A DNA stretch of 27,705 nt from a virus (taxonomy: Duplodnaviria; Caudoviricetes). The notes under the pieces are model-generated. The model made no database searches and had not been told where the DNA came from. It saw nothing but the letters and a program-made list of their open reading frames with translations. The first letter of the stretch is position 1. Every line of letters starts with the position of its first letter. Positions 4,938 through 27,705 of this stretch are shown here, in pieces. The stretch lies in IMG/VR virus record IMGVR_UViG_3300044701_002366, positions 1-27,705 of that record. One strand, written 5' to 3'. A program made the position numbers and the translations under genes.

Positions 4938-5163
4938 TTAAATCCTTTAGTAAACATTTTATTTCATTAATAGAAGATTTTAACTCACCTAATTCATTTT
5001 CAAGGTTATCTATTCTAGACTTTTCTAAAATCTTTCTATTTTTCAACATAGTATAATGTCCAGATGAAATAGAATCTGTATTAATAATTGCATTAGTTGA
5101 AAGATCTCTCAATAAATTTGGATATCCTTCAACTTTTGCATATTTTATATCATCATTTGTCAT
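4924..5163 (-). CDS. Small hypothetical protein with C-terminal coiled coil
   Basis: KVEGYPNLLRDLSTNAIIN followed by heptad-like RIDNLENELGELKSSINEIKCLLKDLI. Start overlaps the upstream stop (ATGA), indicating translational coupling. Confidence 0.8.
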   Translation of the reverse strand: MTNDDIKYAKVEGYPNLLRDLSTNAIINTDSISSGHYTMLKNRKILEKSRIDNLENELGELKSSINEIKCLLKDLIDGS

Positions 5164-8100
5164 TTTAGTGCAATTGCTCTTAGATCTTTAATTATTGGAG
5201 TAGTTGCTTGTGATTTACTACTTCCAACAATTTTAATTTGAAATCCAGTAAATGTTGGAAGATTATCTGCAGTGAATGAATAATCTCTATACTCTCCTAA
5301 TCTACTTGATGGAACATTTGAATCAGGTCTTCCATCATTATCATCTTCATCTATAACTCTGGCATTTACATCTAAGTTTAAATATCCTGGGAATAATTGC
5401 CATACTTGATCTTCATCTGCAACATCATTTCTGAAAATTTTATATAAAACTCTGAAGTCTGAGTCAGAATCTCTTATTGCAGCACAAAGAACTTTCAATG
5501 AATTTGCACTTTCTTGAAGATCTATTCTAGTTGATACATGAACGAATGCATGAGGATCATTTAAATTAGAGTTTACTCTAGAGTCTGTTGAGTATGAGCT
5601 AATACCTACTGGTTGATTAATCCTATTAATTTCTGTAGACACATAAATCTGTTCTAAGTCAATTAATGGAGACACTTTAGAATCTTGAGTACTTAAAGTT
5701 AATTCTAAAGTAAATGATTTTGATCCAGGGAATTCTGTAGGATTGACAAAATCAGTTTCATTTTCTTTTGATGCAACCATTCTAACTGTTGGGAACACAG
5801 TAGTTTCATTTACATCAATATCTTCAAATCCTTGATCCACATAAGATGATTCTTGACCATCAACACTAGTGGATGAAATAGTTCTAATTCTTCCAGAAAC
5901 AGAAGTCTGATTAAATGAGGTTACAAAAACTTCATTAATTGAAAGTGTATTAAACTGCTGATTTTTTGAAGCATACACATCAGAACCTCCTCCAGATTTT
6001 ATATCAGTAAATGTGCTTCCTGCAGAAACTTGAACATAATAACTATCTAATGTTGGTTTGGGTGAAGAAACTACTGTATGTGTAGCATTAATTTTAGTTA
6101 ATGGAACCCCATTAAATTCATACTTATATACTAGAGAATTTATATCATGTGGCAAACTTATAGTACTAAATTGTGATCTAGTAATGTTAAGTAGTTGATT
6201 AGTAGTAACTGCCTCATATCTAATAATTTCATCATCAATTTTTATATACCCTGGATTTGTAGAGTTGACTATAGATCCATTGTAAGTGCCAAATATTGAT
6301 GTATTTCCTATACTAATTGCTCCAGTATCGGTAATTCCATAACCAACTGTTAGTTTTTCAGGAAGACTGTCACTTTGTACACCTATAATTTCAACTTTAC
6401 TTCCTACTGCATGTAATCCATGATTTTGATGGAATACTAATATATGCCTTCCATCATTTACAGGAGATTCTCCTAAAGTTGAAATTGCAACTATAGGATT
6501 ATTTTGTAAATTTCTTTCTTGAGCTCTAGTTGATATTTTTGCATTATAGAATCTTGCAGTTGCTGAGTTTGAAATAAACTCTGCTCTTTTTAGTATAAAT
6601 TTAAGATCATCTTCTGGACTTGGAACCCATGTGGCACCATTTTGAGACTTGAATAAAGTTCCAAGAGATGGTTGCTTATTGATGATAATCTTATCAAGTT
6701 CATTTTGATTTGCAGTACTAATTTCATTTTCCCCTATTCTAGAATGCCATACAGTATAAGCATCAGAATCTGATAGCAATACTATTGCATATTCTTTTCC
6801 ACCTTCAAGTCTTACTAAAGTATCAAAAGTAAATGTAGTTGCAGTTAAACTATTAGTACTAGTATTAACTTCGCTTGGCATTAGAACTTTTTCAAGTCCC
6901 CCAAGTCCACCCACTATGCTATTTGATCCCCCTGGATACCCATTTACGGTTTCTCTTATTTGTAAAGTTACAGGAACACTGAAATCTTTCTGTGCAAAAA
7001 ATACATCTACTGATGTTGGGATAATCCCATTTTCCTCATCAACTACAAATGTTTGAGCAAGTGGATCATAGAAAATGTTTCTAACTGTTGTAACTAAAGT
7101 TCCTGCAGTAAAGTAAGAAGTTTCTGCTGAACTTGGAAATTCTCCTGGAACACCTAATAATGGTCTAGAAGTTTCTAACTTAGCTGTAACTGATCCACTT
7201 GTTATTGCATTAGGTGGAATCCAAACTGATCCTTGAACAGTTCCATTAGTGTCAGTAACTAATCTATTATCTGCTATTATAGCAGTTGCCTTACTTGTTA
7301 ATCCATATACTCTAGCACCATTTTTAATATTTCCCCAATATTGAGATGGGAAAGGCTGAGATAAAGTTTCAATATCTATGTTTAGGAAAGAAGATTGTGG
7401 ACCATATAAAGTAGAAATTCCTACAGTTGGGGAATATGGATTAACTGTATATTTTGTAGTGGGATTATCTATTGGACCTTGTTTGTGATTTGGTGCGCAT
7501 AATCTACAAACACAAGTATCAACGCCATTAGTAACATAAATTGTTTCTCCAACTTGAAAAGATCCAGAAACACTAGTTATTTCTACTAATTTTGAAAATA
7601 CTGAAGTAGATCCTTCTGACAGATTTAATCCAGCAAATACAAAATTAAATCTAGTTGTTGGTTTTAATCTAGTGGCAGTGAACTTAATGTTTCTTGCCCT
7701 CATGTATGGAATTCTAGTAAAAAGAACTGCAGCTACTTCAATTTCACCACGCCTCCACCAATTTGGAATCCACCTATCTTCGTTTACAAAAACTGCCCAG
7801 TGATCATATGGTGGATTTAATTTAAGGTTTCCAATCCAAGTAGTAATATTATATGGGTTTACACTAACAGTTCTACTTGCAAAAGGTTGTTCAAAATATT
7901 TTACTTCACTATAATTTAATGATAATGTAGTTCCAGTTCTTTTAATATTGTTTGATGGTGTATCATTTATATTAATAGTTTCTATGGAATACTCACTATC
8001 AGATGGCAATAATGATAGATCTATTCTATTTCCTTCTTTTTGAGGCTTTAAAGTTTCATTTGAAATATCTGCACTATAAGATGGATCTTGAGTATCTGAT

Positions 8101-11100
8101 GCTGAATAATTGGTAAAATTATCTACAAAAAATCCAGATTTAAATCTATTAAATCCATTTTCATCTTCAATCAATAAATTTTGAGTGGATGTTTCTAATA
8201 AAGATAATGTTGTGTAAAATTCTAATTCAGTAACTCTATTTTCAATGCCTCTCAAATCTGACATTGTATATCTTTTGTTATCTTTAAGAACTACTACAAC
8301 TTCATTCCCAGTGTTTATGTCATAGACATATGGGGAACTAATTATAGTAGCTACTTCTAAAGTTTCTGAAGATACTGCTGGTGGAATTGGAGTTTCACTT
8401 GGATCTCCAAAAACAACAGAAAAATTTCCTTCCCTATCTAAAATTAATTTGTCAGTTCTAGGCAAGTAGAAATCATAATCAAAAATAATACTCTCTCCTG
8501 ATGCCAGTATTTGAGATGAATTATTGCCACTAGAATTAAATGATCTTGATGTAAAATCAAAAGGACTTAATTTAGTTTCAATAATATAACTACCAACTCT
8601 AGGTCTGATATCTATAGTATCAGTATTTCTTACACCATTATATGTTGGAATAGACTTTCCATAAATGAAGTTTGGATAGCTATTGACTGAAATTAGATCT
8701 CCAGAATCACTTGGTTCAAAGCTAAAGTAATCAAAATAAACTTTTAATCTACCAAATGGTTCTTTTGAAGATAATTTTCTTACTATTCTGGAATAATCAT
8801 AATATTGCTTTCTTTGTCCATTATCTAAGGTAAATTCATCTAATATATTTTTATCTCCAAACTCTACTATTCCAATAACTGCACTAACCCCGCTTTCTTT
8901 AAATCTTACTGTTTCAGATACTTGGAATGTTTGTTGGGTTTTATAAATTAAATAGATTTGAGTTGATCCCCTTTGTTCTGCATATACTGCTACTGCTCCA
9001 CTAGTTTCACCTACAACTAATTCACCTACTATTAAATCTGATGTTGTGCTACTTGGACTCTCAATTCCAGTTAAAGCTATCCAAGGTATAGTTGGAGATG
9101 AAGTATTAGATGATTCATATATTGCTTGAATTTGAATTACATCAGGAACATTTAAACTAATTTGAGTATCTTCTACTCTTACACCATAGATGCTAGTATA
9201 TCCTAATCCAACATTTTTGGGGGTCGAATATTTTGTCCTATCTATTGTTATTGTAGAACATCTATTTAACTTCTTCTGCTTTGCAGTAACATTAGATTTA
9301 ATTTGAGTAGTTATTACTTTACATGGACCAGATACTGCACTCAAATTAGTAAATTCAGCATTTTTACCACCATTAGATATAGTAAAAGTTGAATTTGATA
9401 AATTTTCAAGTGTGCTATTTGCATTTATTACAATATATCTTTCCTCGTCAAATCCAGAATAAACATAGTCAGTTCCAGAAAGAGATGGTAAAGTTAAAGT
9501 TGTTCCAGATTTAGTAAGACCACTATATTCTTTCTTTACATAAACACTGGAATTTAAAAAGTTTACATTAGAAATATTCGAATTATTTAATTGAGAATAT
9601 AAAGAAGATTCTCCAGCATTAAATATTTGAGGTCTCTTTAAATTTAAAGTTTGTAAGGTATAATTTCCAACTCCAATATTTCCATCACAAACATTAGTTA
9701 CTGTAGAAACTCCAGTTACTGTAATTTTATTTTTTGTGGCAGCAATGGAAACTATCTTGGTAAAAATAGAGTTTGTTGATCCAGAAGTATCATATGAAAT
9801 AATATCCCCAATCTTTAAAATTCCTGCAAATGTATCTCCATTGTTTTTTGTAATAGTTGCTATTCCAGTTGGAGAATAAACTGCAACATCAAAGGGACCA
9901 ATTAATGAAGTATTTTCAGTTAAAATAGTATCACATACAAATCCATTAGAATCTGAGATTGATTTAACATCATTAATAGAATAATCAGTTACAGTTCCAA
10001 TTGAGTTGCTGCTAGTTATTCCATCAAATATTAAAGTTTCATTTTTAGAAAATTTGCCAGATACTTGATATAAAGATAACTGATTGCCAGAAACTGACTT
10101 TACAAATCCAGATGCGCTAGTATTTGCCCCTTCTACATAAGTACCAACTAAAATTGCAGATCCAATTCCAGTTGTTGATACTATATTAGTATAGGTTTGA
10201 ATATCAAAAAGTCTTAGATTAAATTGACTGGATGGATTTTCATAAGATGTATTATTGGATTCAAAATCATAAACTCTAGCAACTCCAATTGTAGTTCCAG
10301 TAGATACTTGATTTTCTAACCTAGAATCATATAATGTTATTATCCCAGTTGTTGTTAAACCTATTCTAGGAGAATTTACTACGTTATTGACTTTTAAAAC
10401 ATCTCCAGCAAAAAAAGTGGTGGATGAAGATTCTACTGACTTTGTAGTTCTTGGCTTTGGATAATCTACAATAGTTTCTACAGTACCTACTTCATACCCT
10501 TTAACATATGATTTCCCTGGAGAAACTCTTAATACTGCAAGATCATCTGATGGAACTGACCCACTGGATGTTTTTTGTCCATCAGAATAAATTCCATTAT
10601 TTCCATATCCATTATTTAAAGATTCTAAAGCATTGACAAAATATCCAGTAATTGAATAGTTACCAGATTCATCAAATGTTCTTCTTGCTAAAACATCAGT
10701 GATAAAGGTTTCTTTAGTGTCTGCTTTAATTTTTCTTACTATTCCATTCTCTACTCTAAACAGCTCTACAAAATTATCATCATTGTAATCATCTACAGAT
10801 TTTTTAGATAATGATAATTTAATAGAAAATCTATCTGCTCCTGGAGCTGCAAAATTAGAAAATCCTTGAGCATTATCATTTAATGATGCATCATCATTAG
10901 AATCATTTATAATTTCAGAAATACTTAATCCCACTCTATAAGTAGGAATATTGGTATATTGGTCTAGTATAATAGTTTCTTTTTCTACACTTACAAAGTA
11001 TCCTCTAATAAAAAATACTCCATCTTCTATTGATGCAGCAGATCCAATTGAGGTTGCAGTTCTTCCAATAGGATCTGCTACACTTGCAACCGATTCACCA

Positions 11101-11594
11101 GCAAAAATAAATCCAGCACCTAGTATTATATCTTCTGTTGTTGTAAGTTCTTCTCCATTTTCAAATATCTCAGTCTGAAAATTATCAGGAGATGAGGTTT
11201 GATATTTTACATATAATGTGCTATTTTCTCTACTAGACTCTGATCTAGACAATACCTTAACTACTTTAGCAGTTACACCTGTAGTAGATCCTCTTATTGT
11301 TTTACCAACTAGTTGATTAAAATATTCCTCTACATCAAGTCCTTTGAATGTATTATTTAATTCTATTGAATTAAATGCAGAATCATAAGAAACTGCTCCA
11401 GGAACTACAACACCACCATTACTAAAAAATTTACTTCCAAATCTTTCAATTTGATTTTGTAAAATTGATTGTAAAGTAGTTAATTCCCTTGTCTGTACTG
11501 TAACACCTGGCTTAAAAAGAACTTTATAATAGTTCTTTGATGCATTGAAGTCGTCATAATATGGACTTCTATTTAAATTTGTACTTTGGGGCAT
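5160..11594 (-). CDS. Large virion structural protein, VrlC-like / DUF4815 family
   Basis: MPQSTNLNRSPYYDDF..KNYYKVLFKPG..VQTRELTTLQSILQNQIE, APGADR, LARRTFDESGNY, RFKSGFFVDNF, DPLAQTF, GTLFKSQNGATW, C-terminal PIIKDLRAIAL. Lies directly after gp8. Confidence 0.85.
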   Translation of the reverse strand: MPQSTNLNRSPYYDDFNASKNYYKVLFKPGVTVQTRELTTLQSILQNQIERFGSKFFSNGGVVVPGAVSYDSAFNSIELNNTFKGLDVEEYFNQLVGKTIRGSTTGVTAKVVKVLSRSESSRENSTLYVKYQTSSPDNFQTEIFENGEELTTTEDIILGAGFIFAGESVASVADPIGRTATSIGSAASIEDGVFFIRGYFVSVEKETIILDQYTNIPTYRVGLSISEIINDSNDDASLNDNAQGFSNFAAPGADRFSIKLSLSKKSVDDYNDDNFVELFRVENGIVRKIKADTKETFITDVLARRTFDESGNYSITGYFVNALESLNNGYGNNGIYSDGQKTSSGSVPSDDLAVLRVSPGKSYVKGYEVGTVETIVDYPKPRTTKSVESSSTTFFAGDVLKVNNVVNSPRIGLTTTGIITLYDSRLENQVSTGTTIGVARVYDFESNNTSYENPSSQFNLRLFDIQTYTNIVSTTGIGSAILVGTYVEGANTSASGFVKSVSGNQLSLYQVSGKFSKNETLIFDGITSSNSIGTVTDYSINDVKSISDSNGFVCDTILTENTSLIGPFDVAVYSPTGIATITKNNGDTFAGILKIGDIISYDTSGSTNSIFTKIVSIAATKNKITVTGVSTVTNVCDGNIGVGNYTLQTLNLKRPQIFNAGESSLYSQLNNSNISNVNFLNSSVYVKKEYSGLTKSGTTLTLPSLSGTDYVYSGFDEERYIVINANSTLENLSNSTFTISNGGKNAEFTNLSAVSGPCKVITTQIKSNVTAKQKKLNRCSTITIDRTKYSTPKNVGLGYTSIYGVRVEDTQISLNVPDVIQIQAIYESSNTSSPTIPWIALTGIESPSSTTSDLIVGELVVGETSGAVAVYAEQRGSTQIYLIYKTQQTFQVSETVRFKESGVSAVIGIVEFGDKNILDEFTLDNGQRKQYYDYSRIVRKLSSKEPFGRLKVYFDYFSFEPSDSGDLISVNSYPNFIYGKSIPTYNGVRNTDTIDIRPRVGSYIIETKLSPFDFTSRSFNSSGNNSSQILASGESIIFDYDFYLPRTDKLILDREGNFSVVFGDPSETPIPPAVSSETLEVATIISSPYVYDINTGNEVVVVLKDNKRYTMSDLRGIENRVTELEFYTTLSLLETSTQNLLIEDENGFNRFKSGFFVDNFTNYSASDTQDPSYSADISNETLKPQKEGNRIDLSLLPSDSEYSIETININDTPSNNIKRTGTTLSLNYSEVKYFEQPFASRTVSVNPYNITTWIGNLKLNPPYDHWAVFVNEDRWIPNWWRRGEIEVAAVLFTRIPYMRARNIKFTATRLKPTTRFNFVFAGLNLSEGSTSVFSKLVEITSVSGSFQVGETIYVTNGVDTCVCRLCAPNHKQGPIDNPTTKYTVNPYSPTVGISTLYGPQSSFLNIDIETLSQPFPSQYWGNIKNGARVYGLTSKATAIIADNRLVTDTNGTVQGSVWIPPNAITSGSVTAKLETSRPLLGVPGEFPSSAETSYFTAGTLVTTVRNIFYDPLAQTFVVDEENGIIPTSVDVFFAQKDFSVPVTLQIRETVNGYPGGSNSIVGGLGGLEKVLMPSEVNTSTNSLTATTFTFDTLVRLEGGKEYAIVLLSDSDAYTVWHSRIGENEISTANQNELDKIIINKQPSLGTLFKSQNGATWVPSPEDDLKFILKRAEFISNSATARFYNAKISTRAQERNLQNNPIVAISTLGESPVNDGRHILVFHQNHGLHAVGSKVEIIGVQSDSLPEKLTVGYGITDTGAISIGNTSIFGTYNGSIVNSTNPGYIKIDDEIIRYEAVTTNQLLNITRSQFSTISLPHDINSLVYKYEFNGVPLTKINATHTVVSSPKPTLDSYYVQVSAGSTFTDIKSGGGSDVYASKNQQFNTLSINEVFVTSFNQTSVSGRIRTISSTSVDGQESSYVDQGFEDIDVNETTVFPTVRMVASKENETDFVNPTEFPGSKSFTLELTLSTQDSKVSPLIDLEQIYVSTEINRINQPVGISSYSTDSRVNSNLNDPHAFVHVSTRIDLQESANSLKVLCAAIRDSDSDFRVLYKIFRNDVADEDQVWQLFPGYLNLDVNARVIDEDDNDGRPDSNVPSSRLGEYRDYSFTADNLPTFTGFQIKIVGSSKSQATTPIIKDLRAIALK

Positions 11595-16267: not shown

Positions 16268-19200
16268 TTAAGTATTTGGATTTAGAACGCTCTTTTCAAG
16301 ATATCTAAATCTATAAGTAGCAGAAACAGTGGGATTAAAGGTTAATACATACTCACTAGTTGAGGGATTTAATATTGTTTCAAAATCCAACTCATCTTGT
16401 GGAAAGTCTCCAATTATTCCATAGGTTGTATTATTAGTATATCCTTGGAAATGAAGTGAATTTATTTGAATTAAAGACTTTTGAGTACTTAATCCTACAG
16501 TTTTGGTAGCTTCAATTATGTATTTTGTTGCTGCATATGCAGAACTGACTGTAGAGATTGATACAGGACTTACTCCAGTATATATTACTTGATTACTTCT
16601 AACTCTACTCAGTTCTTTACTTATTTCATTTGGAACATCATAAGTATTAGTTATAAAGTTAAAATTAGTAAATAAAGTCACTCCAATTCCAATTGGTGGG
16701 GTGAATGTAAATTGCACATTTCCAGCACTAGTTGTTATGCCAAATACTCCAAGTTCTTTATATTTTTGTTCTGCAAAAATATTATAATCTATAATATTAT
16801 TTTGATTTTTGACAAAACTTATTTCAAATGCATTTTCAACTTTTTTAGGAGCTGAAGATATGCCTAAAAATACAGACCCAGCAACACAGTTTGATAGAGG
16901 AATGCTGTAAAATACACTAGTAGATGGAGATGGAGTGGATGTATAAATTCCAGTAGACTCTACATTCTTAATATATCCAAAAGAAGTTGTGGCAATACCA
17001 ACAGAAACATTAGCAGTTTCTTTAACTGCTCTAATAGCATAACTATTAAATATATTTCTTGGAATAAAATTAATGATTATTTCATCTCCATTGGTAGGAC
17101 TAAGTGCTCCTTGAATATTTCCTAAAGGAAGAGCAGCTGCCCCACTTGATGTGAAGAAATCATAGTAGTATGCATAAGAAGATAGATTTATAGTATCATT
17201 ATTTCTAGTCACAAATAAATCTAGAACCTGAGGTTTTACAAATTCTCCAAAGAATGAAGCAGTAGTTCCAACAAAGAAGAAATACTTTAATACAATGTTT
17301 TCAGTAGTATCTACTTCATCAACAATAACCTCAACAAATGGAGCATTATCAGTATCAAATAAAGTTGAAATATCATCAATAGGAAGAACTCTATTTTGAG
17401 TTGATAAAATATAATCTGATAATTTTCTAGTTCTAAATTTAATAAATTCAGAATATGCTCCTCCACTTTCATCAATATCTTCTTCAACAACTAAATCAAA
17501 GTTTGAAATAGTATTTACTTGAGAATATGATGTTAATACAACATTAACTGAGGATGTAAAATCAGATTTAACTCTTAGATCATTATTAGTGCTTCCAATT
17601 CCTACTATTTGATTTGACTCAATGCTAAGGTCTGCAAATTTTTTGTAACCTGTAACATGAGATACATCTGAAACTATAGAGTTCCAATCAGTATATGGAA
17701 TTTTGCTCTTGAGAGAATATGAAAACTTTTGATAATAATCATTATCTGGTAATTTTTGAAGAATGCTTGATAAATTACCTCTAAAGTCTTTCCACCCAAT
17801 TGTTTCTGGAACACTAGAATCTATTGTAAATAATGCAGGAAAATCACTTATATCTGATATAGTTCCCTTTGATTTTGACGATACCCCAGTAACAGAATCT
17901 CCAACAGATAAACCTGCAGACTTATGGAGCTTCAGTATCCTAGTAATTTTATCATTATCTGGATTATCAATAATTTCAACTTCATCAGTTAAAAATTCTG
18001 AATTATAAAATTGACTTTCCTCTAAAATGGGAGTAATTTTGGTAACATCTGAATACTTTATAACTGATGCATTAAATGTAAGATCTTCATTAAAGATTCC
18101 TGGGAATTCATTTACTTCATACCTAACCAAAGCAGCATCTTGAGAATTAAATGCTTGATCTACAAATACTACCTTAAATGGAACATACTTAAAATCTTTG
18201 CTATTAAATCCTACTCCAGAAGTGCTAACTATATTTTCAACTAATATTTCATCACCAACTTCTATTGGCAGTGGAGATTCAGTTGTAAATCCTACTAAGG
18301 GAGTTTCTAATGTTAATGTTACTTGGTATGGATCTATTCCAGCAACAGAAGCTGATAATATTCTAATACCATTGCTATTATCTAATACTAAAATTTCATC
18401 ATCAGTAGATTTTAAATTTGATCCTGAATTTAATATTTTAACTTCATTTATTGAAGTATTTTTTAGTACAGCAATTGCAGTAAATTCTTCTTTAATTAAA
18501 TCTTCTGTTCTGTTGTATAATTTTAAAGTTGGAGCAGTTAAATATTTTGAACCAGGAGATGTTACTATACAGTCAATAACTTCATAGTTATTTGTTAATT
18601 TTATTGTAGAAAATACATTTGAAACTGGTCTTAGTGTAGTATCTGATGGAAAAATAGATTGTGTATTTGTAACTTTAGCATTTTTAAGTTTTCCTATAGT
18701 ATTGCTAAATGCAAATAAATTAGCACCAGATCCTTCCTTTGTTATTATTTGCTTAATTAATGGAAGTTTTTTATAATTAGACCCATTAAATAGGACTTTT
18801 ACTTTTGCTATTGGACCTTTTATATTTGGTGATTTTACATTATACTTTAATGTTGATAATGTATTTGTATATTTTTGTCTTTCTGGTTGAATTGCAACAT
18901 CATATTCAAATGTATAATCAGTAGTAGTAATTACAGAAGAATCTGTATTGAATAGACTATTATTTACTATTATTTTATTATAGTCCTTTAGAGATATATC
19001 TGGATAAATTTCATCATCAGAGGTAATATTTTTTAAATTATAGTAAAGAATTTTTGGAGTAAATTCACTAATGTTCAGTCTAAGTTCTGAAGCAGTTTTA
19101 ATAACTTCTAATCCATTTTCTTCATTACCAAAATATTCATTATTAAATGAATTATTTGTGTAAATTCCAAATTCTTTTCCACTTAAACTTAATGACGAAA

Positions 19201-22200
19201 CATCAAAAACCACAGTATCATTAGCATATACATTAACTGGAACACTTCCTTGAGAATTAATTAGTACTCTTTTGGTTACAGTTGAATATCCTACTGTATA
19301 ATTAGTGACTATTCCAGAAATAACACTAACTTTTATATTATCATTAGATGATAATCCATGAGTTTCTCCAGTAGATACTTTTACTTTATTTTGAATTGCT
19401 GTACAAGTAGTAACATTTCTTACTGTCTTTAACTTGTGTAATATACCAGTTCCAACTGATGTATACTGTATTATAGATGCTGCATCATTAATTTTATTCT
19501 TTTCATTAACTAATCCAACTATATCTGAAGATAATTTAATTACAAAAAGATTTGGTATAGACTCAAGATTTCCTAAATTAGTTACTATACTTGATGCATT
19601 TGATTCGTATACTACTTTATCTCCAGTCTTAAACTTGTTATTTGGTAGATATAATCCTCCATATTGAACATATTTTGTTATAGATGTTCCTACTCCTAAT
19701 GGATATATTGCTAAAGTATTTCCAAATCCTACAGAAGTTCCCAATCCAATTGATACTGACTGGACAGGATTAAAATAATATGTTTCATCTAATTGAGTTA
19801 ATGGTTTATCTAATCCTTTATATTCAAATGTAAATCTATTCTGTAAAGGTATAACAGTTGATCCAATTCCATATCCAGGCGATGCTGGTTCTCTTAAAAC
19901 ATTTAATAAGTTATTGGTAAAATCTACACCTACTACCTTAAAAGTTTCGCTTTCAATTTTAAATTGATCATCTATATTATATGAGAATAAAGGTTCTTTA
20001 ACAGATAGACCAGTAATAATTCCAGTAGTAGTTGAATCTGAAAGTGTGCTGGCGATAGAAGTAATAGGATATTCTACATTAATTCTAATTTTTCTAGTAC
20101 CTTCAATTTCAGAATAATCTGTTGTTGAAATCCCAGTAATTGTAATAAAACTTTGATCTGCAAAATTGTGAGGTACTGTAGTTATACCTAAGATTCCAGT
20201 GTTTATACTTAATAGTTTAACATTTGGAAAAGTATTTGTTGAATACTGTATAGTAGTTATACCTACACCTTCAACTTCTACAACTTCTCCATAAGCACCT
20301 ACTCCACCAAGATTGTCAGTATCGAATACTATTTTATCCCCAATCTCATAATTAAGACCAGAATCAATAATCTCTATAGAGTCTACATTTCCAGAAGATG
20401 AGGATGTAATTATTGCATCACTTCCTAAAGAATTGGATTCAAATTTAAAATACTCATAATAATTACTTTTATCTTCTATTCTGTATGGTTTGGTATATTT
20501 TACAATGTTTAATTTATTAAAATTTAAATTTTGATTAAATTTTAAATCAAAATTTTCTTGTTGTGGAGTGTATTCGTAGTTGTTTCCTATAATGTATGGA
20601 AACGCAGGTACATTATTATCATCCAGAGTGCAAAAATAAGCATATATTCCATCTGGATATTCTGGAGTAATGCAAAATCTTCCATTGTTTCTATCTAAAG
20701 TTCCAGAATTTGTAAAAATATAGTCTTCTATGCAATCTAAATTGGAAGGCGGGCTAATCTTTGATCTGGAATATCCACTCTTCATTCTAATTACACTACC
20801 AGTTCCATCAGTATTAGCAAATGCATATGGACCATAAATTGGACACCCATCATAAGCCCATCCAACTATTGGAGAGTGTTTTATTGGAGTATTTGGAATG
20901 TTAAAAGATGATCTAAGATTTTGATCTAAAAAGAAAGTTCCAAAAATGTTTCCAAATAAAGAATATTTTTTTCCAAAAATAGTTCCATTATTTAAATTTG
21001 AAATTCCTAATTTAGTAACTTCATTTATTGTCCAAGAAGTTAAATTAGCAGATACCTTTAAATTTTCTCCTTTAGAAACTACTTGAATAGTTGTATTTGT
21101 AGATGCATATCCAACTCCAGGATTTGCTACAATAACATCTATGATTTGTCCATAACTTACTTGCTCATTATAGATTTCACCATTACTTAATACTGGTTGT
21201 AATACTGCACCATATCCATTTCCAGAAACTTTAAGTTCAAAATTGTTAAAATAATTTTCTCCAGCATTTTTGACTATAACATCAATAATTTTTCCATCTT
21301 CTATTACAGTAGCAAAAGATGCATCCTTTCCTTCTAAAACAGTAATTACAGGACGCTTATGGTAGTTTATTACATTATTAGATCCTAAGAGTTGTTTAGC
21401 AGGTTTGGCAAGACCTTTTTGAACTCTAACAGAAGTAACTGACCCTTCAACTACAGGAATAATTGTAGCACCATATCCAATTACTGCAGATGCAGTTTTT
21501 TTAATTTTTCCAAAAACATTAGCAGTAATTGGAGGATATTGTACAAAATAAGTAGTAGCAAAATCTGTACTAATGATGTTTAATACATTTTTTCCTTCTA
21601 TATCAGTAGTTAACTGGAACCTATCATTGTCTAATTTTAAAATATAATAAATTTGATTTGGTGTTGCTCCATCTAAGTAAGTTCCTTCTGATGTAATTAC
21701 TACTTTATCTCTAGTATTGAATTGGTGATCTATACATGTAAAAATATTATCATATACATTAATATCTTCTGGACCAAAGGATAATTTCTTATATTCAAAA
21801 TTAATATTTTGACCTAAAACATTTACTTTGTCTATTACTTGGATTTTATTCAAAGATTTAAATCTTTGAATGCCGCCACCAGTAGTTCTTATATTAATTA
21901 AATTTCTTTCTGCAATAGCATCTTCTTGATTTAATGCTAATTTAATTGAAGTTCCTGCTCCAATATTTACAGCATAATAAATTGAGTTATTTAATAAAGT
22001 TCCATCTGAAACTATAGACCCAATTCCTATTGGAATAGTATTAAAAGTTTCATATACAATAGGCTCACCAGTTATAAACCCATGGTTTCTTCCAAATCTC
22101 AATTCATTATTTACAGTGTTTACTACAGTATCTCTAGTTGTTGCATTAAATTCAACAAGTTTATCTATGCTCTTCATTTTAACTTGAGCAGATAATTCAT

Positions 22201-24622
22201 CATTGTTTCCGCCAGTTATAGTAACTATTGGAACATCTTCATAGTCATATCCAGGGTTTACTACCACTAGATCTTTTAAAATTCCTTTCATCTGAGGAAT
22301 TAAAAATGTAGTTTGATCTTTCTCGCTGCCATTAAAAATTTCAAAAGATGGTGGATTAATCAAACTATAATTAGTACCACCATTTAAAACATCTACAGTT
22401 TCAATTTGTCCATAATAAATTTTATCATAAGATTTATAATTTTGAATTTCTACTCCATTAACAAAAATTCCAATTGGACCAGCAGCGGTTTCAATTTTGT
22501 TATTAGAAAACTCTAAATCTTTTGGTATTTTTTTAAATAACTTAGAGGATGTGAAATTATTTCCATATAAAGGAGAACTTATAAGAACTATTTCATCTAC
22601 GGTTCCAGATAAATTGCCTACATTATCATACTCAAAGAAATTTACTGATGTTTTGCCTACATTGTCTCTGTTTTCAGTTAATCCTAAAGTATTAGGACTT
22701 AATCTAGTAACATAGTAAGTTATTCCAGTATCAATCCCAACTTTATTAGTATAATTTGTAGAGGTTTTATATGAAACTACCTTTACTGCTTCTCCATCAT
22801 AAAAATTGTGTGCTCCTATTAATGTAGATACATTAATAGTAAAAGAAAACTCTCTAATATATGGATTTAGTTCATAATCAGGAAGTCCATTAGATGTTAT
22901 ATAATAATAATTATCATCTACGTAACAATCTTGAATATTAGAAGTAAATTTATTTTGAATATTGTCATAAAGTTTACTGAATGGAGTTGCCTTTGTTTTT
23001 TTTAAATTTCTTCTAAATAAAACATTTTTTCCTAAAATACTAGTGTTTGATATTTGCTGAACACTAAATTCTTTAGAAAGACTGGTGTTTACTGAAAGTC
23101 CTGATGATATTAAATCATACCCTTCGGCAGACTTAACAAAAAGATTAACAGTATCTCCTAACTTTAAATTGTGGTCATATTTAGATAAAGCTAATCCATT
23201 TACAATAGAAAATCCTTCTTTAAAATAATTTCTTGTTGTATTAGTTATCTGTGTTGTAGCTATTCCAGATGGTATTGTTAATGGATGATTATAGTATAAA
23301 GATTTTGTAAATACAGTAGATACTGTATTTCCTATATTTTCAACCCTGATAGGATCATTATCTAATGCATATAAGGTTTCTGATGATTTTATTCCAGATA
23401 GAACATTATTTACTTTTAATCTAACTTGAGCTGAAATATCTCCATCTTCGTATGAATATACAAAATTAGATCCATAGATCTCAGATCTTCTTCCAATAAC
23501 AGTGGTGGAGGTTATTCCAGTTACACCAATAAATTGATTATTAGTTTTATCTGAATATGTATATTCTTCTCCATTAATATTCAATATTCCACTCTGAGGA
23601 AATCCTACAGTTGAGTCTACAAATATTGTAGTAGAATCAACATCTACATTTTCTACTGCATATGTTTTTGGAGTGGATACAAAAACTCCAGTAATAGATC
23701 CTTTAGGACTTATATTATTAGAATACCCAGCAAATATTTTTATTTTATATAATACTTTGTCATCTAATTTAAATGACTCTACTTCATAGATTGATCCAGT
23801 AGCTTCCAGAACATTTGAATTGTATGGATCACTATCTTGATATAATGTCTGACCTTTTATTTTTAATGGATCTCCAGATATTAAATCGCATACAAAAGTT
23901 TCTGTTACTACCCACTTATCATCAGAAGGAGTAAAGCAAAATTCTCTTGGCTTTATAATCTTTACATCCTGATCATAAAGTACTTTAAATAAAATCTTAA
24001 AAGCTTCGTCTGTTCCTTTGCTCTGATAAAATGATTTTGCTTTTGAAATGAAATTTTGAGGATTAATTTTAGAATTTAATTCTACTTCTTCAAATCCTGG
24101 AGTAAACTGATATTTAATTTTATTGAAAAATTCTACTAAAAATAGATTGCTAAGATTAATTACTGAGTCTCCCTCAGAATGAAAATCTGCCTCAGTCTTT
24201 GAAAATGCAAGTACTTCTGAATTATCTTCACTAGAAAGAGATTCTATACCACTAAACCCTCTAATACACCCTAAAAATGAATTAGTTGTTATGCCAGTAT
24301 AGGTTATGATCTCGTTATTAATTTTAAATAGACCATAAGAATTAGGCCACCCATTAGTAGACTCTACATAAATCTCAGAATCAATAAAACTTACATCTGA
24401 AGTTAAAGTAGTACTTTTTATCAGATTAACTTTATCAAATGATTCTACATTTTTGTAGTCAGTTAAATTTTCAGATAAATCTACAGGACCACCAGTGTAT
24501 TCTTGAGAGATATAATATTGAGTTAAGAATTCCGAAAAGTTTGGATTTTCTTCTGAAATAAATTCGGGAAGTTGATTTCTAACAACATCTGAAATTTTAA
24601 TTACTTTCTTTTCGTTATTCAT
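16268..24622 (-). CDS. gp7: Giant baseplate wedge initiator (gp7-like), modular
   Basis: Follows gp6 with a 1-nt gap. N-terminal VVRNQLPEFI..FLTQYY..FYQSKGTDEAFKILFKVLY and internal DNDYYQKFSYSLKSKIPY..W...V....HVTGYKKF are gp7-type motifs. Many inserted repeats. Confidence 0.78.
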   Translation of the reverse strand: MNNEKKVIKISDVVRNQLPEFISEENPNFSEFLTQYYISQEYTGGPVDLSENLTDYKNVESFDKVNLIKSTTLTSDVSFIDSEIYVESTNGWPNSYGLFKINNEIITYTGITTNSFLGCIRGFSGIESLSSEDNSEVLAFSKTEADFHSEGDSVINLSNLFLVEFFNKIKYQFTPGFEEVELNSKINPQNFISKAKSFYQSKGTDEAFKILFKVLYDQDVKIIKPREFCFTPSDDKWVVTETFVCDLISGDPLKIKGQTLYQDSDPYNSNVLEATGSIYEVESFKLDDKVLYKIKIFAGYSNNISPKGSITGVFVSTPKTYAVENVDVDSTTIFVDSTVGFPQSGILNINGEEYTYSDKTNNQFIGVTGITSTTVIGRRSEIYGSNFVYSYEDGDISAQVRLKVNNVLSGIKSSETLYALDNDPIRVENIGNTVSTVFTKSLYYNHPLTIPSGIATTQITNTTRNYFKEGFSIVNGLALSKYDHNLKLGDTVNLFVKSAEGYDLISSGLSVNTSLSKEFSVQQISNTSILGKNVLFRRNLKKTKATPFSKLYDNIQNKFTSNIQDCYVDDNYYYITSNGLPDYELNPYIREFSFTINVSTLIGAHNFYDGEAVKVVSYKTSTNYTNKVGIDTGITYYVTRLSPNTLGLTENRDNVGKTSVNFFEYDNVGNLSGTVDEIVLISSPLYGNNFTSSKLFKKIPKDLEFSNNKIETAAGPIGIFVNGVEIQNYKSYDKIYYGQIETVDVLNGGTNYSLINPPSFEIFNGSEKDQTTFLIPQMKGILKDLVVVNPGYDYEDVPIVTITGGNNDELSAQVKMKSIDKLVEFNATTRDTVVNTVNNELRFGRNHGFITGEPIVYETFNTIPIGIGSIVSDGTLLNNSIYYAVNIGAGTSIKLALNQEDAIAERNLINIRTTGGGIQRFKSLNKIQVIDKVNVLGQNINFEYKKLSFGPEDINVYDNIFTCIDHQFNTRDKVVITSEGTYLDGATPNQIYYILKLDNDRFQLTTDIEGKNVLNIISTDFATTYFVQYPPITANVFGKIKKTASAVIGYGATIIPVVEGSVTSVRVQKGLAKPAKQLLGSNNVINYHKRPVITVLEGKDASFATVIEDGKIIDVIVKNAGENYFNNFELKVSGNGYGAVLQPVLSNGEIYNEQVSYGQIIDVIVANPGVGYASTNTTIQVVSKGENLKVSANLTSWTINEVTKLGISNLNNGTIFGKKYSLFGNIFGTFFLDQNLRSSFNIPNTPIKHSPIVGWAYDGCPIYGPYAFANTDGTGSVIRMKSGYSRSKISPPSNLDCIEDYIFTNSGTLDRNNGRFCITPEYPDGIYAYFCTLDDNNVPAFPYIIGNNYEYTPQQENFDLKFNQNLNFNKLNIVKYTKPYRIEDKSNYYEYFKFESNSLGSDAIITSSSSGNVDSIEIIDSGLNYEIGDKIVFDTDNLGGVGAYGEVVEVEGVGITTIQYSTNTFPNVKLLSINTGILGITTVPHNFADQSFITITGISTTDYSEIEGTRKIRINVEYPITSIASTLSDSTTTGIITGLSVKEPLFSYNIDDQFKIESETFKVVGVDFTNNLLNVLREPASPGYGIGSTVIPLQNRFTFEYKGLDKPLTQLDETYYFNPVQSVSIGLGTSVGFGNTLAIYPLGVGTSITKYVQYGGLYLPNNKFKTGDKVVYESNASSIVTNLGNLESIPNLFVIKLSSDIVGLVNEKNKINDAASIIQYTSVGTGILHKLKTVRNVTTCTAIQNKVKVSTGETHGLSSNDNIKVSVISGIVTNYTVGYSTVTKRVLINSQGSVPVNVYANDTVVFDVSSLSLSGKEFGIYTNNSFNNEYFGNEENGLEVIKTASELRLNISEFTPKILYYNLKNITSDDEIYPDISLKDYNKIIVNNSLFNTDSSVITTTDYTFEYDVAIQPERQKYTNTLSTLKYNVKSPNIKGPIAKVKVLFNGSNYKKLPLIKQIITKEGSGANLFAFSNTIGKLKNAKVTNTQSIFPSDTTLRPVSNVFSTIKLTNNYEVIDCIVTSPGSKYLTAPTLKLYNRTEDLIKEEFTAIAVLKNTSINEVKILNSGSNLKSTDDEILVLDNSNGIRILSASVAGIDPYQVTLTLETPLVGFTTESPLPIEVGDEILVENIVSTSGVGFNSKDFKYVPFKVVFVDQAFNSQDAALVRYEVNEFPGIFNEDLTFNASVIKYSDVTKITPILEESQFYNSEFLTDEVEIIDNPDNDKITRILKLHKSAGLSVGDSVTGVSSKSKGTISDISDFPALFTIDSSVPETIGWKDFRGNLSSILQKLPDNDYYQKFSYSLKSKIPYTDWNSIVSDVSHVTGYKKFADLSIESNQIVGIGSTNNDLRVKSDFTSSVNVVLTSYSQVNTISNFDLVVEEDIDESGGAYSEFIKFRTRKLSDYILSTQNRVLPIDDISTLFDTDNAPFVEVIVDEVDTTENIVLKYFFFVGTTASFFGEFVKPQVLDLFVTRNNDTINLSSYAYYYDFFTSSGAAALPLGNIQGALSPTNGDEIIINFIPRNIFNSYAIRAVKETANVSVGIATTSFGYIKNVESTGIYTSTPSPSTSVFYSIPLSNCVAGSVFLGISSAPKKVENAFEISFVKNQNNIIDYNIFAEQKYKELGVFGITTSAGNVQFTFTPPIGIGVTLFTNFNFITNTYDVPNEISKELSRVRSNQVIYTGVSPVSISTVSSAYAATKYIIEATKTVGLSTQKSLIQINSLHFQGYTNNTTYGIIGDFPQDELDFETILNPSTSEYVLTFNPTVSATYRFRYLEKSVLNPNT

Positions 24623-26504: not shown

Positions 26505-26908
26505 TAGTATCTTGTAGGTTGTAATATGAAGCTAATATTCTGGGTTGGTAAACTTAAACCAATGATGTCATAGACTATTACAACATTCAACTCATTTTCA
26601 TCGAAATATAATTCAACATCAACTCTTCTTAATGAAACTCTTGGTTCAAAATTTCTTATGACATTTTTTATTTCATCTTGTAATGGTGTTATTATCCCAC
26701 TATCAGCCATCTCAAAGTAATAATTTTCTACATTAGAACCTAATAGAGAATTAAAAAACCTTTCTCCAACCTTAGTTCTGACTAAGTTAATGACTGATTT
26801 TTTAATGGCATCCTCATTTTTTAATGATATAACATCATTAGTAACAGGATGCCTGTTAAAAGACAAACTAATATCTTTAAATCCTCTGGAAATAGATTCT
26901 AAAGGCAC
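26504..26908 (-). CDS. gp25: Baseplate wedge subunit gp25 (sheath initiator)
   Basis: FKDISLSF..HPVTND....NEDAIKKSVINLVRT..GERFF, NFEPRV. GTG start; stop overlaps the gp6 ATG (TAATG). Confidence 0.93.
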   Translation of the reverse strand: MPLESISRGFKDISLSFNRHPVTNDVISLKNEDAIKKSVINLVRTKVGERFFNSLLGSNVENYYFEMADSGIITPLQDEIKNVIRNFEPRVSLRRVDVELYFDENELNVVIVYDIIGLSLPTQNISFILQPTRY

Positions 26909-26913
26909 TTTTT

Positions 26914-26937
26914 TATTTAATATTTATCTTTATTTAT
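26914..26937 (-). promoter_or_regulatory. Triple T4-type late promoter cores upstream of gp25
   Basis: Minus strand reads ATAAATA AAG ATAAATA TTAAATA: three TAAATA cores in 24 nt. Confidence 0.7.
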
Positions 26938-27179
26938 TGGGGTTTACCATATACAGGCTCAGTTCCATACTCCCAATCATCATAATCTTCATCATTTCTG
27001 ATTTTTTCATGAATATCTGCCTGTTCCTTTAAAAAATGCTTACTTTTTGGAATATCATCATGCATAATTTCTTGAATTGTCTTTACATTTGTGGGTTTAG
27101 TGTAATCAGTGACTAATTTTGTAGTCCCCCACATCTGATACATGTAATTTTGATCCCTATCAGTAGGTAAATTTGACAT
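26934..27179 (-). CDS. Hypothetical protein with acidic/aromatic C-terminus
   Basis: 81-aa ORF with SD AGGAG (27189-27185) 5 nt before the ATG. Ends DEDYDDWEYGTEPVYGKPQ. Confidence 0.85.
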   Translation of the reverse strand: MSNLPTDRDQNYMYQMWGTTKLVTDYTKPTNVKTIQEIMHDDIPKSKHFLKEQADIHEKIRNDEDYDDWEYGTEPVYGKPQ

Positions 27180-27184
27180 AGTTG

Positions 27185-27230
27185 CTCCTAATTCTAGTGA
27201 ATTAGAACTTTTTACGGGGTTCCTATCCCG
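27185..27230 (-). promoter_or_regulatory. Candidate cis-regulatory RNA: H-type pseudoknot competing with an SD-sequestering hairpin
   Basis: mRNA CGGG AUA GGAAC CCCG UAAAAA GUUCU AAUUC ACUA GAAUU AGGAG. S1 is CGGG/CCCG and S2 is GGAAC/GUUCU. The alternative 9-bp stem UUCUAAUUC/GAAUUAGGA covers the SD. Confidence 0.55.
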
Positions 27231-27430
27231 AAATCTGCAATTTTGTCTCTATGTAAAGTATAATTTTTTTGTACTCTAATGTCTGAGTTTTTAAAAGTCC
27301 AACAATACCCTCCATTATCTAGGAACACAACCCACTCAAGGTCATGTTCCTGTGATCTATCAATCAAAAAAAATGCCCAGCCTGATCCTTTAGGAGTCAG
27401 AACTGGGATTTGTGGATCAAGTTGAAGCAT
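27212..27430 (-). CDS. Small hypothetical phage protein (beta-rich)
   Basis: 72-aa ORF whose ATG abuts the upstream TAA. MLQLDPQIPVLTPKGSGWAFFLID..EHDLEWVVFLDNGGYCWTF looks like a natural protein. Confidence 0.8.
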   Translation of the reverse strand: MLQLDPQIPVLTPKGSGWAFFLIDRSQEHDLEWVVFLDNGGYCWTFKNSDIRVQKNYTLHRDKIADFGIGTP

Positions 27431-27574
27431 TTATTTGCCTTGTCCTCTATATTTCTTTTTTGCACCATTACGAGAGGTAGAAGACAGCTTAGTATGTTGG
27501 GACATACCTTGACGAGTCTTCTTTGGTTTGCTCTCAATGATGACTTTATTGGTCAGTGAAGGACGCTTTGCCAT
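27431..27574 (-). CDS. Small, highly basic protein (47 aa)
   Basis: Absent from the ORF track (short). MAKRPSLTNKVIIESKPKKTRQGMSQHTKLSSTSRNGAKKKYRGQGK. SD AAGGAG at 27588-27583, 8 nt before the ATG; stop abuts the next ATG. Confidence 0.85.
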   Translation of the reverse strand: MAKRPSLTNKVIIESKPKKTRQGMSQHTKLSSTSRNGAKKKYRGQGK

Positions 27575-27586
27575 AATCTTATCTCC

Positions 27587-27705
27587 TTAGGTTCTTAGAC
27601 ATTCTACCACAAGATCATCAGGTTTGGGAACCCCTGTCTCATAATATTGTTGAGACAGTTCGTCCATCACCTCAAACATGTCTTCTTCTGAAAGATTGTT
27701 ATAAA
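27587..27705 (-). CDS. Small acidic hypothetical protein, 5'-truncated by window edge
   Basis: Open frame ...YNNLSEEDMFEVMDELSQQYYETGVPKPDDLVVECLRT-stop. The TAA overlaps the SD of the next gene. Confidence 0.7.
   Translation of the reverse strand, partial: YNNLSEEDMFEVMDELSQQYYETGVPKPDDLVVECLRT

Follow-up and report, generated by a model that had tools for sequence, protein, structure and literature searches.

A conserved leader element with a predicted pseudoknot and competing hairpin precedes a small gene in Kyanoviridae cyanophages

The 27,705-nt stretch of viral DNA analyzed here (hereafter the window; IMG/VR record IMGVR_UViG_3300044701_002366, a linear viral contig of 27.7 kb, 14% complete) represents the late part of the genome of a T4-like cyanophage, and raises the question of whether the short leader of one of its small genes acts as an RNA switch. 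A first-pass annotation had proposed that this leader alternates between a compact H-type pseudoknot and a hairpin that hides the ribosome-binding site. In minus-strand order, the region encodes a basic protein of PHROG 516, a 72-aa insert, the element itself, an 81-aa protein, and gp25-like and gp6-like baseplate proteins. The positions originally assigned to P1, the loops, the hairpin, the Shine-Dalgarno (SD) sequence, the AUG and the upstream stop codon all match the minus strand, and the features of the locus are as follows:

27431..27574, minus strand: 47-aa basic protein, PHROG 516 (PHROG match); candidate RNA-binding partner
27212..27430, minus strand: 72-aa upstream ORF, lineage-specific insert (ORF list; comparison of orthologs)
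27227..27230, minus strand: stem 1 (P1) 5' strand, CGGG (sequence read-out; compensatory changes in two of four pairs)
27219..27226, minus strand: 8-nt loop, AUAGGAAC (loop tally, 185 leaders)
27215..27218, minus strand: stem 1 3' strand, CCCG (sequence read-out; covariation)
27209..27214, minus strand: A-rich loop 3, UAAAAA (sequence read-out)
27203..27208, minus strand: GUUCUA, putative switching strand; stem-2 3' strand in the knot, 5' arm of the blocking hairpin otherwise
27207-27199 with 27194-27186, minus strand: blocking hairpin of 9 bp with one U·G (predicted fold; covariation in orthologs)
27185..27189, minus strand: SD sequence AGGAG, 5 nt ahead of the AUG
27179-27177, minus strand: AUG of the 81-aa gene (sequence read-out)
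26934..27179, minus strand: 81-aa gene, PHROG 1414 family (weak PHROG match)
26938-26931 and 26928-26921, minus strand: two NATAAATA late-promoter matches between the small gene and gp25 (consensus from PMC2984593)
26504..26908, minus strand: gp25-like baseplate wedge gene, fixed downstream neighbor (PHROG and Pfam)

The loop AUAGGAAC consists of a one-base loop 1 (A) followed by the stem-2 5' strand UAG-N-AAC, whose bulged base is variable, and the blocking hairpin is predicted to bury most of the SD. The 72-aa ORF, which has no match in PHROG or Pfam, ends with a UAA at 27214-27212, within loop 3. Further along the strand, downstream of gp6, lie ORFs of 2,784 and 2,144 aa (window positions 16268-24622 and 5160-11594, minus strand); in S-SRM01 the annotation at the place following gp6 is baseplate wedge initiator.

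For a 71-nt stretch of the window, the predicted fold has an energy of -14.7 kcal/mol (z -1.86) and includes P1 together with the 9-bp hairpin. This energy, matched by 7 of 200 shuffles, is weakly above chance on folding alone. Since the fold of the window by itself is modestly unusual, it is conservation that argues for a real element. The element pattern matched once in the window against 0.00 matches expected from 100 shuffles. When leaders were reached through the protein alone, leaving the DNA motif unused (80 loci, one of them lacking upstream DNA), the predicted two-state leader of the 81-aa gene proved conserved, the element being found in 79/79 leaders (53 distinct) whose upstream genes differ widely. 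Conversely, 116 of 117 distinct pattern matches, from 120 loci, precede a PHROG 1414-type gene. A pattern scan puts the number of IMG/VR stretches with the element at an estimated ~3,500; cultured carriers are Syn9, with the element near 58,105, S-CREM1, S-SRM01 and S-WAM2, with the element near 58,513, and relatives among cultured phages are Kyanoviridae infecting Synechococcus and Prochlorococcus (P-RSM1). By these sequence comparisons the leader element is a conserved family in the Kyanoviridae, and a one-off is excluded. Larger tallies given below refer to 185 distinct leaders, a mostly motif-selected set in which the search itself partly dictates the invariant positions and which includes one chance match (L306).

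Of 37 pattern matches in bacterial genomes, 12 are true copies preceding the same phage gene; inspection of the other 25 found both the full P1 and the gene to be absent. The true copies sit in bacterial or archaeal assemblies (L292, L294, L296, L299, L301, L302, L304, L305, L308, L315, L317 and L319) and probably represent cyanophage contigs binned into them. In a close relative (L099), in which the element occupies 601-627, contigs from three RNA libraries cover the sequence from 607, 612 and 642 onward; such contigs reveal no transcript start, strand or level, and were given no weight. We also note a degenerate copy (L451, 290-330, minus strand) in which both junction bases have changed to A and across which the upstream ORF extends, perhaps an intermediate on the way to losing the element, and a look-alike at 301-327 of L452, L453 and L455, with a U-A junction pair and an unrelated phage gene downstream, that probably arose by chance in coding sequence.

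Stem 1 covaries strongly in these sequence comparisons. The standard-length class comprises 83 of 114 cores, all distinct and 30 nt long, and in it two of the four pairs show changes on both sides, in 31 and 18 cores. One of these pairs is G-C in 65, A-U in 15, U-A in two and C-G in one; the other is A-U in 44, C-G in 20, G-C in 10, U-A in one and unpaired in eight. The covariation score of 0.214 compares with 0.098 after shuffling and was reached by none of 500 shuffles, while slid registers scored at most 0.063. On a FastTree phylogeny of gp25 (124 loci), the two varying pairs underwent at least 13 and at least 15 changes among paired states, counts that are rough given that gp25 is a short protein and the region recombines.

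Stem 2 presents a different picture. The first-pass annotation had offered two registers, of which the bulged one, UAG-N-AAC with GUU-CUR, is paired in 98.8% of cells over the 83 cores; the unbulged one, GGAAC/GUUCU, does not hold in 66 of these cores and was rejected as a general feature. The orthologous leaders that had been suggested as a covariation test show covariation in stem 1 and the anti-SD hairpin; in stem 2, none of six pairs shows a two-sided compensatory change in the 83 cores, and two columns change on one side only. Five scans in which non-consensus bases were imposed likewise yielded no stem-2 compensation. Excluding A at position 6 gave no viral match and 14 metagenome matches, none preceding the gene family; excluding A at position 7 gave two matches, both bulge deletions; excluding G at position 4 gave six, of which four are bulge shifts from one lineage, where the bulge has moved by one base with the pairs kept, and two break the pair; excluding C at position 8 gave five, namely one degenerate family copy, one unrelated match and three look-alikes that were left uncounted for their U-A junction and unrelated gene context. 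Leaving the tail G and the middle of the loop free gave a sample of 120, all of which were canonical or carried A3 to G. This last substitution, which retains a G·U pair, occurs in 5 of 185 leaders with an 8-nt loop and in one more that has lost the bulge. The identity of the bulged base is unconstrained, and three of the 185 lack this base altogether (L277, L322, L323). A purine follows GUUCU in 179 of 185 leaders (G in 144, A in 35), either being able to partner U2, whereas the blocking hairpin alone would tolerate any pair at this base. The junction C is complementary to the RNA's own tail G in 83/83 cores. Exceptions are L327 and L329, where the stem-2 G-C pair is broken, and L451 with its A·A junction. 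Sequence variants of stem 2 (a G·U wobble, loss or displacement of the bulge, an end restricted to purines) thus mostly preserve the bulged register, and its pairing in the pseudoknot state is probable. The absence of covariation is likely due to GUUCU having to pair both with the loop and with the arm of the hairpin, usually the SD.

The proposed competition for the GUUCU strand is supported by predicted folds. GUUCU is captured downstream (pairing probability >0.5) in 170 of 172 distinct leaders, compared with 52% of composition-matched shuffled tails; for capture of the start region, only 25 of 172 real tails beat all 20 of their own shuffles. The capturing partners vary, and may be the SD, a CAGA beside or overlapping the AUG, or arms within SD-less leaders. 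Where the SD is AGGA (n=111), the hairpin arm covaries, with 75 G-C against 14 A-U at one pair and 49 A-U against 44 U-A at another. Median SD pairing falls from 0.79 in the knot-free ensemble to 0.27 when the knot bases are blocked (the 159 leaders, of 180, that have an SD, the other 21 having no clear one), in agreement with the ON logic suggested earlier, although for 36 of the 159 the SD remains more than half paired despite the blocked knot and the copy in the window drops only from 0.77 to 0.50. The energy gap between the states has a median of -2.4 kcal/mol toward the hairpin, before any loop penalty or tertiary terms, a crude value given that ViennaRNA cannot fold pseudoknots.

In 16 of 179 leaders a longer hairpin takes up the P1 3' strand and the A-run and so breaks P1, which is conserved there too. 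Among these 16 fall all seven leaders (of 179) with long hairpins of -16 to -23 kcal/mol followed by five or more U, a terminator-like arrangement exemplified among cultured phages by S-WAM2; L113, whose stem is interrupted, went unflagged by a simple terminator scan. Transcription attenuation would be the corresponding mode of control in the U-run lineages. A conserved domain overlapping a variable expression platform, as computed here, is a general trait of riboswitches. Because a conserved core is combined with varied platforms that all compete for it, we consider a two-state switch of one kind or another quite likely.

Which gene this switch would serve is indicated by linkage and promoter position. 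The basic protein anchors 70 distinct loci (80, minus six duplicates and four without gp25), of which 31 have the element and the small gene, 24 the gene alone, 15 neither and none the element alone. The element is therefore present at 31 of 55 loci with the gene and at 0 of 15 without it, two of the latter carrying a diverged gene, and its scores are sharply bimodal. Its absence before many orthologs indicates that it is dispensable. Element-less small genes (L280, L283 and others) either have an ordinary SD downstream of a late promoter or directly adjoin the upstream ORF, which at the level of sequence suggests constitutive or coupled expression in place of a switch.

NATAAATA is the late promoter consensus of cyanophages (PMC2984593). 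In 93 of 185 leaders the closing G lies 8-12 nt beyond the end of a TAAATA or TAGATA, whereas other distances within 40 nt occur in five. If the consensus acts as a late promoter at this place, the transcript would start at P1, and late transcripts would begin there in about half of the phages. Since gp25 has promoter matches of its own, the target appears to be the small gene rather than the operon; the original assignment to the 81-aa gene thus holds, and control of the baseplate operon, to which the two NATAAATA matches before gp25 speak, is doubtful. The stop codon in loop 3, from which a terminating ribosome had been envisaged as one possible gate, is specific to certain lineages: by a crude frame rule, 13 of 168 loci have a longest upstream frame that terminates within the 3' half of the knot, and at 87 of 168 it stops before P1. 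A terminating ribosome may help in lineages with a stop in loop 3, but as a conserved trigger it is set aside since such stops are confined to them.

The product of the small gene offers few clues. The family spans 44-98 aa and is a mosaic of an N-terminal LITD module, an acidic DDWEYG module and a cysteine-bearing RPCGG module, gained and lost independently of one another. Most members combine the N-terminal module with one of two C-terminal modules; none of the modules occurs in every one of the 177 element-bearing proteins, about nine lacking the N-terminal one and 26 both C-terminal ones. Autoregulation as a general feature is disfavored, as the element-bearing proteins share no module. 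The protein has no Pfam match, a similarity search returned hypothetical look-alikes only, and its 179 profile matches come from a library without family names; its structural model is of low confidence (pLDDT 61, pTM 0.26) and predicted to be largely unstructured. The PHROG 516 protein upstream is 45-51 aa long and very basic, with invariant PK..RQG and YRGQG motifs and no known family; it is a fixed neighbor upstream of gp25, found in an estimated ~10,000 IMG/VR stretches, and persists at loci without the element. It is plausibly an RNA binder. Between its gene and the element lies an insertion hot spot (e.g. L082 2109-2435, L001, L006, L010) whose cargo is a S-adenosylmethionine (SAM) decarboxylase gene in S-SRM01, with similar 113-aa ORFs in related loci, and in other lineages unrelated genes of 72-226 aa that often end inside the element. 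Sensing of SAM, which the decarboxylase gene might evoke, was dropped because that gene is upstream and lineage-specific.

Taken as sequence evidence, the core, the covariation of stem 1, the competing hairpin and the strict linkage to the gene are established by these comparisons; from them we infer stem 2, the switching and the ON logic. The best reading, which we put forward tentatively and at somewhat less than even chance, is a two-state ON switch gated by a protein. A compact H-type pseudoknot would hold GUUCU and leave the ribosome-binding site open, this state being set when a protein binds, likely ribosomal protein S1 or the 30S subunit, or a late protein of the phage; without the protein, the downstream hairpin would capture GUUCU and the gene would be off. 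A protein is favored over a metabolite since none of the 37 bacterial-genome matches places a copy before a bacterial metabolic gene, and since every conserved base has a role in pairing or as an A-minor base, the A-minor roles of loop 3 being presumed from pseudoknots in general. The C at the position that would read a ligand faces the RNA's own G, suggestive of a filled pocket, which together with the missing host copies ranks a protein effector first. The identity of this effector is the least certain part of the reading. Working models for such gating may be found in tisB, whose 5' pseudoknot is required for binding of S1 and 30S (PMC7708055), as well as in timP and T4 gene 32.

Somewhat unlikely, though next in order, is that no effector takes part and the leader works as a folding timer, in which the knot would fold first on the nascent late transcript, with the start region briefly open, and the hairpin would later invade and silence the mRNA, or terminate it in the U-run lineages, to give a small fixed dose of protein. 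The whole knot does precede its competitor, and in many leaders (the 93 of 185 above) sits where the transcript is predicted to begin, the predicted energies of the two states are similar, and a junction C paired with the RNA's own G makes an empty pocket unnecessary. timP provides a precedent for mutually exclusive folds with a translation-competent pseudoknot (PMC11228461), although its knot forms late. Such a timer, however, does not obviously require a near-invariant loop and tail across thousands of phages, and a weak SD would presumably be a cheaper route to low output.

An orphan riboswitch for a small molecule or ion, with a preQ1-I-shaped aptamer of altered specificity whose ligand turns the gene on, is unlikely. 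It would account for a near-invariant 24-nt core on interchangeable platforms, both anti-SD and terminator-like, and for traits shared with preQ1-I riboswitches of types II and III, namely an AC before the P1 3' strand, a closing G and an A-rich loop 3 (PMC11625349); cyanophages are also known to contain glnA, manA and wcaG RNAs (PMC9964418). Against it, a search of the whole window with Rfam gave no match at gathering thresholds, and among seven matches at E up to 10 in 26850-27705 none was to preQ1 or any other riboswitch model; A replaces U after P1, the C that would set specificity is matched by a complementary G within the RNA itself, host genomes hold no copy ahead of a metabolic gene (37 matches), and the regulated gene carries no metabolic clue. 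It is equally unlikely that the element is a riboswitch class born in phages, with a retuned preQ1-I-shaped core among the smallest known, that senses a metabolite or ion reporting the state of the infected cyanobacterium; if it were, it would be wired to translation initiation or to transcription attenuation according to the Kyanoviridae lineage, and be absent from the hosts.

Alternatively, there may be no pseudoknot, the P1 hairpin (with its conserved loop, a protein-binding or 5'-protective structure) and the anti-SD hairpin coexisting in a static leader that dampens translation, and the complementarity of loop and tail being incidental. We regard this as improbable. This is the nested minimum-energy fold predicted in most leaders, stem 2 is without a compensatory pair, and static SD-hiding hairpins are used by T4 e, soc, 49 and I-TevI (PMC3014915); yet the loop variants follow pairing with the tail, P1 is conserved even in the 16 of 179 leaders where the hairpin breaks it, and T4 late RNA is freed of the 5' arm by the position of the promoter, whereas here the promoter is upstream of the entire element. 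Finally, a trans-acting decoy or DNA-level site, such as a type III antitoxin mimic located before the gene by chance, is very improbable. H-type pseudoknots of about this size do serve as type III antitoxins, and a pseudo-ToxI has evolved in phage TE (PMC5086642). These antitoxins, however, form tandem repeats before a ToxN-like RNase gene, whereas the element is single-copy, without a repeat array, ahead of a gene with no Pfam match; it never occurs without that gene (0 of 70 loci), the distance from GUUCU to the AUG is held at 21-30 nt in 177 of 185 leaders, and the G·U pairs of the element suit the mRNA strand alone.

In comparison with known systems, the predicted switch resembles pseudoknot-gated leaders while belonging to none tested. 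One of these systems is preQ1-I, whose types II and III (PMC11625349) are likewise tiny H-type pseudoknots with a closing G-C of P1, in addition to the AC, for which UC also occurs in preQ1-I, and the loop 3 already mentioned, and which works on SD and terminator platforms alike, as the element is predicted to do. preQ1-I, however, has U or UU right after the P1 5' strand (PMC11625349) where the element has A in 79/79 leaders, and sits before queuosine genes rather than the PHROG 1414-type gene found after 116 of 117 distinct matches; in the element, moreover, the SD is outside the knot, the predicted logic is ON and the C is complementary to its own G. Membership of preQ1-I was rejected on the Rfam model, the U after P1 and the queuosine-gene context, in line with the doubt on this point, and the recommendation of an Rfam search, in the first-pass annotation. 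tisB (PMC7708055) and timP (PMC11228461) similarly need a pseudoknot to translate a small gene with a sequestered SD, but do so in long leaders of enterobacterial toxins with antisense RNAs and a distant standby site, whereas ~55 nt hold everything here, the knot and the blocking hairpin would be in direct competition, and neither an antisense RNA nor a toxin-like product was found.

Among phage systems, the gene 32 operator of T4 and T2 likewise places an H-type knot of two stems in a T4-like phage leader, where it serves protein-mediated control of translation; gp32, however, is a repressor of its own gene and acts via an unstructured A+U tract (PMC3014915), whereas the element has a competing hairpin and a predicted ON logic. 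The hairpins of T4 e, soc, 49 and I-TevI hide the SD or AUG of a late gene as well (PMC3014915), and are relieved by promoter choice; the late promoter of the element precedes all of it, so that relief would have to come from refolding. The orphan motifs wcaG, manA and PhotoRC-II (PMC2864571) are conserved structured leaders of T4-like cyanophages whose triggers are also unknown, but they are in Rfam, which gave no match to the element, and precede metabolic or photosynthesis genes.

A full-text literature search returned no description of the element, with the model sets of Fremin 2023 (PMC10690425; 8,495 unnamed models from IMG/VR) and Weinberg 2017 (PMC5737381) outside the comparison; it may be present in these as an unnamed candidate. 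Of the four Rfam RNAs listed in the S-CREM1 paper, none is at its position. The sequence evidence describes a widespread, probably undescribed, predicted leader switch of cyanophages. A 2010 review of T4 stated that no riboswitch had yet been characterized in this phage and that the gene 32 knot was perhaps the sole viral pseudoknot in translational autoregulation (PMC3014915).

With the element, a major group of aquatic phages would carry a regulatory RNA that is both abundant and uncatalogued. As a device of ~55 nt found in cultured Syn9, S-CREM1 and S-SRM01, and in its U-run type in S-WAM2, it is readily testable, with natural variants and natural element-less controls at hand. Its trigger, once found, would reveal either a new class of riboswitch or a protein that controls late genes, and would hint at the role of a widespread gene of unknown function.
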